A program made the position numbers and the translations under genes. This document shows, in pieces, positions 16,101 through 37,100 of a stretch of 64,000 bases of DNA; position 1 is the stretch's first letter, and each line of letters opens with the position of its first letter. The notes below the pieces were generated by a model. The model was not told where the DNA came from. It saw only the letters and a list, made by a program, of their open reading frames with translations, and searched no databases. The stretch is from Haplodiscus bocki (Eukaryota): assembly GCA_965655095.1 (NCBI GenBank), contig OZ296648.1, positions 148,490,001 to 148,554,000 of the forward strand. The letters are read 5' to 3'.

Positions 16101-19100
16101 CTTCCCATGATTACTTGTACCACGAACGTACAAATGAATCAAAATCAGTAGAGCTACTTTTTTCAGCTGCGCTGACGTCCAACGTCGAATTTTTTTCCTT
16201 CGATGAGCAGTCCTCAACAATTCAAATCGGTTCTGCCTGACTTGTTTCAAAATATATTTTTCTGAATTCAAAATATCAAGCCAGAAAATGAATTTAGAGT
16301 TTTCCCTGTCGCAACTAATCCGCAGTTTCAAAAACCTGAAGTAAAACTTTTCGCCGATGTTTTTGCAGCTGACATTATCCACCCATTGACTGTAGGGCAA
16401 TGTTTCCATAGTTATCAACTCAGACAAAGCCACTCGTGCAGCAAGAAACAGGGTTGTATTGTGCACCGTAAATGGTGACCGCTTGCCTACAAACAGAAGT
16501 TACCGTTCTTTACCACATCAATTGGTGATCGCCTTCCAGATGCAGATTTTGTAACAAGAACAAGAGAAGTCGTTGAAAAACCTTTGCAGGAGAAAACTTC
16601 AGACATCTGTGGACTCTATTGTTTATGACATGCGCTCCTGATGTTTTTCTATTAACCCTCAATACTTTTCATACGCGAATAAGAACTCGTCTGTTCCTGG
16701 AAACTCTCGCTCCGGTAGTATCTAAGAAAGCGAGAATCGTTTGTTGATTTGAAGGTGGAGCGATGACAATGCACTGAAATTCCGATGATACCGTCAAAAG
16801 TACAGCAACCGTTTTTCTGGTTACCAATTTAAAAAAACGTAGTCTTTTAGTTACTCCCATTCAATTCGGTTTTTTCCTCTCTACCTTTTGCAAGAAAAGG
16901 AATAAAAGTGTGAGTTTCCGTTGAACAAACGAAACAATCACAGAAAAAATTGACAAACTTCAAACAACCTAGAAACAAACACACTCAAATACGATCACAT
17001 TTCAACACACAATGGCGGAAGCCCGACCATGCCTCCGGGTCTTCATCAAGCTCCAATCTCTTCAACCGTAGCAACCGCTTAGATAACTCGTCCGTCCGGT
17101 GGGAATTTGCTCTTAAACCAAAATTAACAAACAGGGCTATCTTTTAGTAGCACGTCGCAGTGACGAGGATACCCGGAACGTCAATATTAGGTTGATTTGT
17201 TGAAGCTAGGGGATATTTATAAACGATAACATCGCTATCTAGAGTTTTATTTTGAAGTAATGGCATAGTGGAATCCCATATATACAGCGGTTCAGAAAGA
17301 TGCTAGGAGATCCAAGCTGTTGGTCCCCAGGACAAATCGACACCCTTCTTCCTACGATATTGACAGAGTTTCCGCGGGACAATCAATTGTTTGTCTGCCG
17401 CTGGTTTGGTTTATCAAATACATTTTTGCGGAGCTTTAGTGTATGGTAACACCACTCTCAATGTCTATTTAAGACACCTCGTCACAGTCATAAAAAAACA
17501 AGGGGAATCGTCAAAGAAAACCGTTTTTCTTCGAAGTGCTCAGTTGTGCTCAGCTCTACTCGTGGAAGAAGAGTAGATCGGATAAGAATGGTTGTAGCAT
17601 CGAGAAAATAGTCTCGATGTGAATCGCAGTCATTTATAGCATCATGCTGAAAGGAAAAGTTGTTCATATCTGCTGAACATTGGAAAATGAAGTCTGGTAG
17701 AAATTAGTGTGCCATACGCGGTCCAAATTAAAACCAAACAAGTGTAGTTTATATGTTGGCAACCACCACGGCAACAAAACAACCCATAGCTATAAGTAGT
17801 ATAGAGTGAGCAGAACAGGGGGGGGGGAAAAGAAGAGGACCAGTCAGCGGGATTCGAACCTGCGCGGACGGAGTGAAAAGTGAATCCGGCCGTCGGTCGT
17901 ATCCGCGGCGCCACGGGAGCTAGTAATCGGCGGACCGGGAATTAAAAGCGTTCCGCCGCTTGCGGATTAGCGTCGGAGAGATTTAATACGTGTACTTAAT
18001 TAGAGTAATTAGGCGAATGCATACTGACTTTTCAAAGGTTAGAAATGAAAGAAATAATAATAATTAAAAGGTAATTATTGTTAAGAATTATTGTTGTTGT
18101 GGTTTGAGGACTGTATCAAATCTGAATAGAACATATAAACATGCAGTTGAAACCATCTACAGAACTAATTATTCAGTTCAGGTGCAGTGCGTTTTATCCA
18201 TGCTTATTTAATATTCCATGCTAATTTAATAATCCATGCTGTGAATGTGCTTACTGTGAATACTTACTGTGAAAACTGTGGTCTAAATCAAAACTGCCTA
18301 CTTTCTGTCGATTTTGTCTAGCTCAGAATCTCTCTGAAGTCTCTGGAACGCGGGGAACCCTCCCCCCCCGCGGCCTGTAGTCAAGGCTAATCCAATACAC
18401 GAGCGGTCTGTAACGAACGTACATTGTGTTTCAAATGGTTGTTGTTTAGACCGTCGTGACTACGATACGTATTGGACTGATAAATATACATTCGATGTTG
18501 CTTAAGCTCACAATTTAGCGAATCTGAAATTACAGCATTTCGAATTTTCAATCAGTAGATTCGTTCTCAATCGAAATTTTTGAAAAAAGAAATCTTTGAA
18601 GTTCCTCAGCGGAACACGAGTAAACAAATCCGTAGCATATCTCACATAGCAATCCACAAATCAATGAAAAGCATAATTTATTTCAAGTTGAGAGTATTTT
18701 TGTATATAATAGACCGTAGTGTAACCAAGGCACTATGCTTCTATTGGAACTCTTGTGCAGATGTTACAAGCTTTGCTACAATATCTACTACTTTACTTCT
18801 TGTACGATTTGTATCCTGAAAATTAAAGTAGGCACTTTCTAAAACAGAGAACTAAATCACCAAAAAATGGAAATAATGCTTCTAAAGCGGAAAAAAGGTG
18901 CAAGAAAGTGAAAAAAAGTGTTAAAAAAGTTGAAAAAAGGTATAGAAAAGTTGAAAAAAAGTGTTAAAAAAGTTGAAAAAAAGTGTAGAAAAGTAGAAAA
19001 AAAGTGTAGAAAAGTTGAAAAAAAGTGTAGAAAAGTTGAAAAAAGTGTAGAAAAGTTGAAAAAAAAGGTTAAAAAGTTGAAAAAAGTGTTAGAAAGTTGA

Positions 19101-34100: not shown

Positions 34101-37100
34101 ACAATAAATTTCAACAGTTTATTTGTTTTTGAAGAATGTGACAATTAACAAACATCATTTACAAGTATTGAGAAAGAAAGTTATCACACAAAACTTGTAG
34201 GAAGAGAGGTAGATACAGACAGTATTTTGTTATTGTGTAAAGTCTCGCGCACTAAAATCTCCATAATCTCGACGTGAGATTTTAAGAGTTTTTCAATCTC
34301 CCCTACTCTGATGTTTACAACTCCTCTACGTGTGAAGTTGTCTGCGAATCCCGATCGTGTGAAGAGTTTCAATTGGATGTATGAGCGATTGAAATTTCCT
34401 CTATCATATGCGGTGAGAGATGCACACACTTTTCGTCTGGCTGTTTCGCATAACTCCCAGAACTTGTCACAACTTTCTCGGTCCTCCAGGGGGGTTGGAT
34501 AGTTTGCCAACTGGAATTGTCTTGTTGTACCCATTTCTTCCCTCTTCAAGGACTCTTGCGATTCCAGAAAATTCAAGAACCACTTCTTGGCTTAACCAAG
34601 AACTTCATCAAGGGAAGATAGAACTCTCCTCATTTCCCAAATCGAAAGAATTATCAACTGATGAAACTTCATCTGTCCCATATTCTCTTTGAATATTTTC
34701 ACGTGAACCCAATTAGTTGGAGCGTTCCCTGAAACTTCAACGTTGGGAAGTGAAATTCTCAAAACTCTTTTTGGTACACAGGAGAAGTCCCAGCATTTCT
34801 GTGATGACTCTGCATCTGCTAAAAATCCTTTCTGACGATATTTGTCCAGCACAGAAGTTCCAAATGTTGTCTTGACTTCAGTATTATCCATCATGGAGGA
34901 AATTGTCGGTGAGTTTTCACTCAAGAGGTCCTCGAAACATTGAAACAAGTTGGTAGAATAGTTTGGATTGTTGTTCGGAAATGTAGCACTCGAGAAGTCT
35001 AGTGATGATAGTTCCGGATTTTCTTTATTTGCTCGACGTTCGTTTTCGTTGTTTTTCTGTGAATTTGTAAGTTTCCTTTTCATTGATAAATTCAACTTTT
35101 CAAGTTTCCAGTGAATATAGAACAATATTGTTTCTGTAAGTTTTCAGCTCGTAATGATTGCGAAAAGTCCTGGAAGAGAAAGTCTTTGTCCAACCAATGG
35201 AGTAGGGATTGCTTTTCTCAACAGCGATACGTCAACGACTCCGATCGGGTGCAACGACCTTACGGTGAACGCTTTTAATTCCCGGTCCGCCGATTACTAG
35301 CTCCCGTGGCGCCGCGGATACGACCGACGGCCGGATTCACTTTTCACTCCGTCCGCGCAGGTTCGAATCCCGCTGACTGGTCCTCTTCTTTCCCCCCCCC
35401 TGTTCTGCTCACTCTATACTACTGCTATACAATCGTTTGAAACAGGTTTTCGCTCTTTAGTGGGCGTCTGTTTTGCAATAGTGCTAGATGAAATTATAAT
35501 TCGGTCAATGAGTTCGAACACGTTGAAACGCAAGGGAAAATAAAGAAAATCGAATGATGGAGGCGCTAGCAATTAGTAAAAAACAATCAGTTTTCTCGGC
35601 GTGAAATATGGTTCAGTGATATATGAATTGATTACCGGCTCAACTGGCTAAAAGTTAGTTTTTCTCAAGAAGTAGTCTATATAGACGTTAACGAGCTGTT
35701 CATCGAACTCGAACAAAAATTATTAACTTTGTGGCTGCAGAGTTCGTCTGTACTGGACCGGGCAAAATTGTTTGGAATGACGTTCATTGAAAAGATTTAG
35801 CTCTAGTGTTCGTTGTTTGTATGCTTCAACAAAGCATTCAATTACCTTGTCGAGTTTCGAAATTTTTCTTACGTTGTTCAAAACCTTCCTACACGAATGT
35901 TTCTCCGGAACGAGTTTTTTGTATACCAGAGACAAGTGAACTTGATATAACCCAGTTCATCGATGGTGCGGAAACACAGCTTTGAGTTGGTCAGCGAAAA
36001 TATCTTTGAAACACCAATAAAAATGCAGCTTTTTCTTCAAGCTTTATCTGGAAGAACCAACTGAAGCGGAAGAAACTACCATTTTGATCAATTCAAGAGT
36101 TGAGAAGATTGATACGCTTTCTGGACACTGTTGCAAATTTTGACTGTTGCTCCATGATATGTTTTCTTCCAACCCCGATTTTTTTCCCGACTGAGGCGAC
36201 GGAAGAAAACATATCATGGAGCAACAGTCAAAGTTTGCAACAGTGTCCAGAAAGCGTATCAATCTTTAAAATTCAAACGAAATGATAATACAAACAGGAT
36301 AACCGGCTGCCTCCGGGACATTTCCGCCCCCCCCCCCCCCCAACTTTGTTAACAACGCGTTTTGAGGAAAAATTACGCTGCTGTATGCGATCTATATCCT
36401 TTTCGCTACTTTCCGAATTTTTCTAGAAAAAATTCGGAAATTTTTTCAAATAACCCTGAGTTTTGGTTGCAAAAAGGCCTTGTTAAAAAATAATACCATT
36501 TTATCCGCATTCAACATCAAAATTGCTGCTTTTTCCGATTATCAAAACTTTCTCTTTTTTTGCAAATCGAGCAAGTGCTTACACTGAAAAACCCAACTTT
36601 CATACGTTTTTAATAAACCCTACTATTTCATTCGCATTTGTTGGACTTCGTTTGTAAAAGTTTTCAAACTTTCAAAATTAATATTATCTGATGCAGTTGG
36701 CAAGTAAACGTAGACGCAAACGTTGAGTGCATGATTTTCCACCATGAAATATAGTGGAAAATAAAAATCGACAGCATTAAAGTAACACTTTAGCTAGCGT
36801 TGATGAAAGTTCAAATTCTCCTAAGGGCGTTGAAGAAATCTTCTAACACAACTGTCCTTCTCGGCATTGGTTATTATTCGAGCGTTCTCAATTCCAACCA
36901 AAGATCAGCCTAACTTTGGGTATGCATTCAACTCTTCTCCGGAAGGACTAAGAAAAAACACCATTCCGCTGAAATTCTCCTCCGATACATTTTTGAACAG
37001 ATTAACGACTGATTTCCATTTTGAGCATTGAGACTTTTCCTTTCCTGGCCGCCTTTTGAACAGCTGCAGTCGCATTCTTACCACAAGTTGTTCCAAGTCC

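Follow-up and report, generated by a model that had tools for sequence, protein, structure and literature searches.

Polintons, also called Mavericks, are 13 to 25 kb long, carry terminal inverted repeats (TIRs) with AG...CT ends and are flanked by a target-site duplication (TSD) of 5 to 8 bp, typically 6 bp. Their TIRs measure 100 to 1,500 bp (PMC10748475), and their family B DNA polymerase, which is protein primed (pPolB), has been described with a TP-vOTU-EXO-PALM architecture that includes an active Cys/His pair (PMC11161782). The related adintovirus family has since become Eupolintoviridae, order Amphintovirales (PMC12451622), and core-gene expression was reported for coral polintoviruses (PMC11131425). 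Since intact-looking copies are common (134 in vertebrates [PMC8097293]; for eukaryotes at large, over 20,000 pPolBs linked to an integrase [PMC10748475]), one more complete Polinton is not surprising. Here we describe such an element at positions 17795 to 35423 of a 64,000-nucleotide stretch (the window) of contig OZ296648.1 from Haplodiscus bocki, originally predicted to be a complete, mobilisation-competent Polinton/adintovirus-like provirus. Very probably, the element is an adintovirus-like Polinton/Maverick provirus of full length that belongs to a set of at least ten nearly identical copies, which stem from a recent burst of an unnamed family, and this copy has decayed since its insertion; this degree of confidence is meant for the reading as a whole.

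The completeness of the element was confirmed by its ends, TSD, length of 17,629 bp and six core genes. It starts with AGTAGT and ends with ACTACT, that is, (AGT)2...(ACT)2, and the sequence GCTATA adjoins both ends (GCTATA/AGTAGT at 17789-17800 and ACTACT/GCTATA at 35418-35429), a 6/6 duplication with a chance probability of about 3e-4. TIRs, AG...CT ends, a 6-bp TSD and a length within 13 to 25 kb are thus all present. The borders are as follows.

17789..17794, left TSD copy, GCTATA
17795..17953, left TIR, 159 bp, (AGT)2 end; 59% GC, 17 CpG
35267..35423, right TIR, 157 bp, (ACT)2 end
35424..35429, right TSD copy, GCTATA

The TIRs had been predicted to be identical except for two homopolymer lengths, and the alignment agreed: there were no substitutions and a single 2-bp gap, which corresponds to one base each in an adjacent G-run and A-run. 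No subterminal similarity was found when the ends were compared beyond the TIRs.

Within the element, 16 tightly packed open reading frames (ORFs) were counted as genes, 15 of them on the minus strand; eight more ORFs of at least 70 amino acids (aa), which overlap the 16 in other frames, were set aside. The 16 ORFs represent 15 genes in sibling copies, 14 of these on the minus strand. Of the roughly 10 accessory ORFs in the original prediction, all 10 are there as non-core ORFs; they amount to nine genes, two of them being halves of one 299-aa gene.

21376..25641, minus strand, pPolB, 1421 aa
25641..26207, minus strand, accessory ORF, 188 aa; belongs to a 10-member cluster and matches no family
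26713..27441, plus strand, accessory ORF, 242 aa, acidic (pI 4.3), the sole opposite-strand gene; cluster of 26, no reliable family match
27664..28068, minus strand, adenain-like (C5) maturation protease, 134 aa, H52/D67/Q96/C101
28061..29302, minus strand, major capsid protein (MCP) of the double-jelly-roll type, by structure model and Foldseek
29305..29673, minus strand, basic 122-aa protein between penton and MCP, 30% K+R, pI 11.6; identical on 7 contigs
29722..30516, minus strand, candidate minor capsid protein (penton), 264 aa when counted from the second ATG, assigned by synteny and a motif; identical on 4 contigs
30536..31486, minus strand, retroviral-type (rve) integrase, 316 aa, D80/D145/E178
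31455..31955, minus strand, 166-aa ORF; identical on 7 contigs, no library match
31942..32271, minus strand, basic 109-aa ORF; no sibling retrieved, no library match
32171..32887, minus strand, packaging ATPase of the A32/FtsK type, 238 aa, or 250 aa if read from 32923; has the Walker A, Walker B, Arg and Gln motifs
32931..33200, minus strand, 89-aa protein with two hydrophobic stretches, probably a membrane protein with two transmembrane segments, judged from its sequence; a sibling weakly matches Pfam SHP (E = 0.006)
33279..33746, minus strand, accessory ORF, 155 aa; cluster of 6
33709..34080, minus strand, accessory ORF, 123 aa; same sequence on 7 contigs, with a weak alignment between its two halves (z = 4.6)
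34184..35083, minus strand, one gene of 299 codons in siblings; here an in-frame stop at 34592-34594 leaves two pieces of 163 aa and 116 aa

By position and motifs, we tentatively take the 122-aa protein to be PW/'Cupiennin'-like, the 166-aa ORF to be PZ/Adintoc2-like and the 109-aa ORF to be PM/'GasderminX'-like. The position of the PW/'Cupiennin' gene is as in PMC8097293 and as labelled in Fig. S2 of PMC8502044. An LxCxE motif was absent from the eight small ORFs checked. A phospholipase-like role of the 155-aa ORF, considered because of a motif, gained no support, and its Atlas matches (SMC hinge) lay under the recognition threshold.

All six core ORFs were open, as predicted, and their catalytic residues were verified by alignment and motifs. 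The integrase matched Pfam rve (E = 2.8e-10) and kept all 19 of the columns that are at least 90% conserved among 111 homologues, which were picked by length among 148 new matches. The ATPase matched Pfam Pox_A32 above the curated cut-off (E = 4.9e-05), while the protease assignment combines a Peptidase_C5 match below the cut-off (E = 0.0044) with the catalytic motif and the gene position. Sequence searches of the PDB with pPolB and the protease gave just weak zinc-finger or chance matches. None of the 78 members of the MCP family matched Pfam. The AlphaFold model of the MCP (AF2, on the 78-member alignment; predicted local distance difference test score [pLDDT] of 91, predicted template modelling score [pTM] of 0.88) matched the iridovirus MCP best in the PDB by Foldseek (E = 1.6e-15), followed by PBCV-1, mavirus and Sputnik, with E of 1e-15 to 1e-13 over all four, and double-jelly-roll matches were returned from BFVD as well. 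Its modelled fold identifies the protein as a double-jelly-roll capsid protein, and 62 of 62 conserved columns were retained. The penton candidate matched nothing in Pfam or PHROG and has 25 homologues, all without names; its position, these homologues and a motif suggest the assignment.

The layout of pPolB comprises N-terminal C2H2 fingers, a C279/H372 pair, a further zinc finger, Exo I-III and palm motifs A-C, and the residues of the Exo and palm motifs were present in alignments with 17 and with 77 homologues, the latter picked by length. A terminal-protein region is presumed from its position. Among the 77 homologues, conservation reaches 90% or more at C279 and at H372; both are retained here, and the pair would fit the vOTU domain described in PMC11161782. 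A weak VSR/REase-like insert (E of 0.005 to 0.08) lies between motifs A and B. Of 232 conserved columns, 220 were retained, and 11 of the 12 departures were common to three siblings. The protein gave no PF03175 match, whereas a 99% identical sibling matched with E = 7e-19; this difference may be a filter effect.

The evidence for a burst comes from the proteins of sibling copies, which are known as proteins and not as DNA. The clusters held 27 MCP and 36 pPolB members, at most 15 per cluster being inspected among the matches listed. Full-length siblings reached 99.8% identity for MCP and 99.5% and 99.3% for pPolB, three small proteins were identical on 7 contigs each and the penton candidate on 4, and at least nine other long contigs, of distinct length, each carried at least one protein that was 98 to 100% identical. 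The ORF of the host exon next to the element was found on one contig only; therefore, the sibling copies probably occupy other loci. The relatives fall into identity tiers of 99%, 92% and 75 to 90%, and sibling contigs carry lesions of their own, namely, a fragmented pPolB on two and a frameshifted 188-aa gene on another. These results bear out the predicted recent activity of an unnamed lineage. They also settle in part the counter-case that had been named for the original prediction, a single fixed copy without transcription and with hidden inactivating lesions: lesions were found (see below), but the copy is not single. Sister families at 64 to 78% and at 48% identity (clusters P0122/P0002 and P0128) have 36, 17 and 115 members on long contigs, several of them full length, and more than one Polinton family appears to have expanded recently.

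A pPolB tree had been proposed as a check and was built from 40 rows (the window protein, P0308 and 38 of 120 listed matches; quick IQ-TREE run, midpoint root). The window protein and 16 others without names formed a separate 17-row clade with a Shimodaira-Hasegawa-like approximate likelihood ratio test (SH-aLRT) support of 100. The named relatives among the matches listed, from Branchiostoma, Asterias, Patiria and Solemya, are 32 to 34% identical and lay outside this clade. We class the element as a new member of the Polintons/Eupolintoviridae-like elements, in an unnamed pPolB clade.

The claim that this copy is mobilisation competent was not supported by comparison with the siblings. The stretches 34592-35083 and 34184-34534 share one frame and are split by the single stop at 34592-34594. 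Three of three sibling proteins, 99% identical, read through codon 164 (two of 299 aa, one of these on three contigs, and one of 236 aa); the stop is thus private to this copy. Outside the integrase and the 109-aa and 89-aa ORFs, 11 private substitutions were counted in 3,745 residues compared with siblings, among them changes at ATPase positions 4 and 167 and at pPolB positions 62, 586, 1235 and 1239; exact look-up of four start variants of the integrase retrieved no sibling. Conservation of the four pPolB columns was 1.0 (22 rows filled), 0.97, 0.91 and 0.46, respectively, so that three of the four changes fell at columns that are at least 91% conserved. One change disrupts a zinc-finger pattern, and the N-terminal finger pattern occurs twice here versus three times in each of three siblings. 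Pooled over three young copies, copy-private pPolB changes hit columns conserved at 90% or more in 4 of 12 cases, compared to 4 of 109 for subfamily-fixed changes and a background of 258 of 1416 (Fisher p = 0.003). This pattern indicates that selection on pPolB acted during replication of the family and not after insertion. MCP differences to a 78% identical sister family likewise avoided conserved columns (2 of 89 versus a background of 15%; p = 6e-5), and the comparisons indicate purifying selection on both pPolB and MCP between families. At the crude divergence of 0.13% per site, zero TIR substitutions would be expected with a probability of 0.67; thus, the identical TIRs give no extra evidence of recency. 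Relative to its siblings, this copy carries inactivating lesions (the stop and the conserved-column pPolB substitutions), and its full autonomy is doubtful. Since its ends are intact, less damaged siblings could mobilise it in trans.

The element lies in an animal-like context, with an intron-exon R3H gene in the flank and marine invertebrates as the named pPolB relatives. An R3H exon was found at 848-1180 (Pfam, E = 2.2e-08), the only match among 150 flank ORFs, and another set of 14 gave none (164 of the 165 listed ORFs were scanned). Low-complexity plus-strand exons, rich in Ser, Gly, Ala and Gln and with GT/AG-like borders, lie on both sides of the element; together with the R3H exon, they span 848-8235 and 38819-41560. 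The element probably sits antisense in an intron of the R3H gene.

For the family, we propose a mechanism drawn from established Polinton biology, to which the window contributes the parts, the MCP fold model, the copy number and the selection on pPolB and MCP. By analogy, an excised linear genome would be copied from both TIRs by the protein-primed polymerase, and the vOTU protease would release the terminal-protein part of pPolB. Packaging by the A32 ATPase would fill a double-jelly-roll capsid that has pentons and adenain-matured basic core proteins, and the rve integrase would insert new copies, leaving the 6-bp duplication. The present copy would have been inserted antisense in the probable R3H-gene intron and would then have decayed without selection, by the nonsense lesion and the pPolB substitutions.

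Several observations weigh against decay of a burst-derived copy in this form. The siblings are known from their proteins, with contigs told apart by length, and the left and right exons are joined into one gene by strand and composition only. The MCP shows no decay signal (none of five sites variable among four young copies falls at a conserved column), every catalytic residue is retained, the residue at pPolB position 586 also occurs in 2 of 77 homologues and the private changes could be assembly errors. The stop sits between two repeats of the 299-aa gene with an ATG 20 codons later; both halves might therefore still be made. A rival view is that this copy is fully autonomous and mobilisation competent, the broken gene being dispensable or made in halves and the pPolB changes being tolerated or sequencing errors. 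It has perfect ends and six open core ORFs with catalytic residues, it keeps nearly all conserved columns (19/19 in the integrase, 62/62 in MCP and 220/232 in pPolB, where siblings share 11 of the 12 departures) and it would count as 'intact' by the criteria given in PMC8097293 (open core ORFs, TIRs and a 6-bp TSD). We nevertheless regard full autonomy as rather unlikely, given a nonsense lesion absent from all three sibling proteins, three of four private pPolB changes at columns conserved at 0.91 to 1.0, a finger count of two versus three and, unless due to filtering, the missing PF03175 match.

Alternatively, the family might spread as an intracellular transposon only, with the capsid module as a passenger and without virions. 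Maverick particles have not been observed, according to PMC8097293, and MCP differences to a 91% identical subfamily, a further point against our interpretation, were not depleted at conserved columns (4 of 35; p = 0.36). However, the four ORFs for MCP, penton, ATPase and protease are open, conserved MCP columns are avoided by the differences to the 78% sister family, and a second young family retains full-length MCP and pPolB in many copies; we consider a pure transposon improbable. A burst that is itself an artefact, the siblings being duplications, haplotypes or repeated assemblies of a few loci, would be compatible with siblings seen as proteins, without DNA or flanks. It is very improbable in view of the separate lesions on sibling contigs, the host ORF on a single contig and the three identity tiers. 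A recent burst of the family, followed by decay of this copy, is our preferred reading.

The gene broken in this copy contains two internal repeats (z = 6.3; 0 of 1,000 shuffles), which we assume to resemble PC4/PUR-type single-stranded DNA (ssDNA)-binding units. Searches of Pfam, PHROG, PDB and Atlas lent this no support, and a single-sequence model of the 299-aa sibling protein was unusable (pLDDT 34). Strand-displacement replication in adenovirus and phi29 employs an ssDNA-binding protein, and the product is a tentative candidate for an ssDNA-binding replication helper, an assignment that we hold slightly less probable than its opposite. On two maps of cnidarian adintoviruses, a gene labelled SSDBP sits next to one labelled SLATT (Starrett et al., PMC8502044, Fig. 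S2), and the two-helix membrane ORF near the 299-aa gene may recall this pairing, as a lead only. A second copy of the 299-aa gene at about 36.0 to 36.1 kb was rejected as chance: repeat 1 scored best there of 732 tiles (score 45), while repeat 2 reached 46 elsewhere. Nesting of the element in an older Polinton is thus without support.

The sole unusual trait of the element is an A-box/B-box pair in each TIR that resembles a type-2 promoter of RNA polymerase III (Pol III); its function is putative. Both pairs point outward.

17850..17913, minus strand, left-TIR pair resembling a type-2 Pol III promoter; A-box 17913-17903 (10/11), B-box 17860-17850 (11/11), then a T4 run
35307..35370, plus strand, right-TIR pair resembling a type-2 Pol III promoter; A-box 35307-35317 (10/11), B-box 35360-35370 (11/11), then only T3

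The pair was noticed by eye first and tested afterwards. Its boxes are 42 nt apart, within the 30 to 60 nt given together with the consensus in PMC12498455, and the two TIRs hold the only such pairs in the 64-kb window. Of 20,000 dinucleotide shuffles of the TIR, 10 yielded a pair and 64 a B-box alone; with stricter patterns, a pair arose in 1 and a B-box in 47. One of the two homopolymer differences between the TIRs (17825-17830 versus 35388-35391) concerns the T-run after the B-box (T4 left, T3 right), where a Pol III terminator would lie, and may reflect slippage or an assembly error. A tRNA gene in the TIR was rejected (no ARAGORN gene, no Rfam tRNA match and a fold no better than that of shuffles, with z from -0.4 to +0.9), and nothing in Rfam matched at the gathering score; a weak tmRNA T-arm match had E = 0.035. 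No description of such a pair in Polinton TIRs was found in titles and abstract openings of the papers listed, a search that did not cover subscription papers and Repbase reports.

The pair might be a working Pol III promoter or TFIIIC boundary kept by the family, giving a VA-RNA-like outward RNA or acting as an insulator. The match quality, spacing and confinement to the two TIRs are in its favor, B-box-bearing inverted repeats serve as boundaries in fission yeast (PMC7474672) and the VA RNAs of adenovirus are Pol III transcripts (PMC2777419). With no tRNA gene, Rfam match or stable fold, a T4 run also between the A-box and the B-box, only T3 after the right B-box and a post hoc test, we rate this as unlikely; the pair may be a neutral relic of a short interspersed element (SINE) or tRNA. 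Less likely again is the narrower version, in which a tRNA-derived Pol III promoter is built into both TIRs and used, for a short outward RNA or for a TFIIIC boundary that shields or loops the provirus. If it were true, it would provide a VA RNA counterpart in a group thought ancestral to adenoviruses and, with young copies of at least two families in one kind of host, a direct handle on the control and virion formation of animal Polintons. If conserved and TFIIIC-bound or transcribed, the pair would be a new control element for Polintons.

The left end of the element, 17954-21375 (about 3.4 kb), contains no ORF of at least 70 aa. It holds two tandem arrays, which together (18860-21147) form 2.3 kb of tandem repeats with extreme strand bias downstream of pPolB, and a subterminal block.

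18340..18470, plus strand, subterminal block, GC-rich, with a better fold than that of shuffles (z = -3.3, the best among the 5 stretches that were folded)
18860..20640, A-rich tandem array with a 10/21-bp period, about 84 copies of a 21-mer, 55% A and 3% C on the plus strand; non-coding, downstream of pPolB
20672..21147, tandem array of a 102-bp unit, 4.7 copies with 87% matches

At 12635-16650 (plus strand), 1.1 kb left of the element, the window holds a strongly degraded, older Polinton from a different lineage, with an ATPase (12635-12895), an integrase (about 13320-14030), an MCP (about 14990-16270) and, as a weak match, a protease (about 16470-16650). Its longer matches are 27 to 41% identical to the queries and in the same gene order; no polymerase remnant was found. 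If the flanking exons form one gene, both Polintons would share an intron of roughly 30 kb, with the young one in antisense orientation. A near-perfect inverted repeat with 66-bp arms and a 30-bp spacer was seen at 36105-36266. Inverted copies of a dispersed repeat of about 0.8 to 0.9 kb, 72 to 75% identical, enclose the downstream host exons (37641-38407 and 45011-45950), and four head-to-tail copies of a 2,142-bp unit, 96.5 to 97.3% identical and with no Pfam match in the ORFs scanned, occupy 54263-62836. The observed/expected CpG ratio was 0.84 to 0.92 in flanks and element; this lack of depletion suggests little CpG methylation in the host.

As this case illustrates, competence cannot be deduced from open ORFs, catalytic motifs and identical short TIRs. 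Whether animal Polintons form virions has been asked for a long time. A host in which a burst took place recently is well suited to the search, although the present copy is not the best candidate, because there are siblings that keep the 299-aa gene whole and have three fingers.

Among known systems, the zinc-finger pPolBs of marine invertebrates resemble that of the family in motif type, in matching PF03175, in a weak Vsr-like insert and, for most of them, in having C2H2 fingers; they differ by their 32 to 34% identity and the separate clade of the window pPolB. Since fingers and insert are common to most named relatives, these traits are not new; the C2H2 mentions in PMC3671162 refer to other proteins. 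The VSR-bearing pPolB2 of marine nematode and mollusc Polintons (PMC10748475) has a VSR/REase-like insert at the same place between motifs A and B, which is weak here. Vertebrate Mavericks as described in PMC8097293 share the (AGT)2//(ACT)2 ends, a TSD of 6 bp, core genes free of introns and a gene order that runs integrase, penton, PW, MCP and protease. In contrast to them, the present element has pPolB at the end opposite from the ATPase, no pPolB/ATPase/PZ module, 14 of 15 genes on one strand, 3.4 kb of non-coding arrays at one end and N-terminal C2H2 fingers on pPolB. Small basic genes lie in the positions of Cupiennin, GasderminX and Adintoc2 of adintoviruses; the small-gene names were given by position and motifs only. 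The Hydra and Stylophora adintovirus maps bear SLATT and SSDBP labels (PMC8502044). With the adintoviruses of PMC8502044, the element has in common a putatively OTU-type pPolB, an rve integrase, an FtsK ATPase, adenain, a hexon-like MCP, inverted terminal repeats and a probably animal-like host. Its PF03175-type (Alpha-type) pPolB, paired with a virion block of Beta-like kind, makes it similar to the Alpha-PolB/Beta-virion hybrids of that study.

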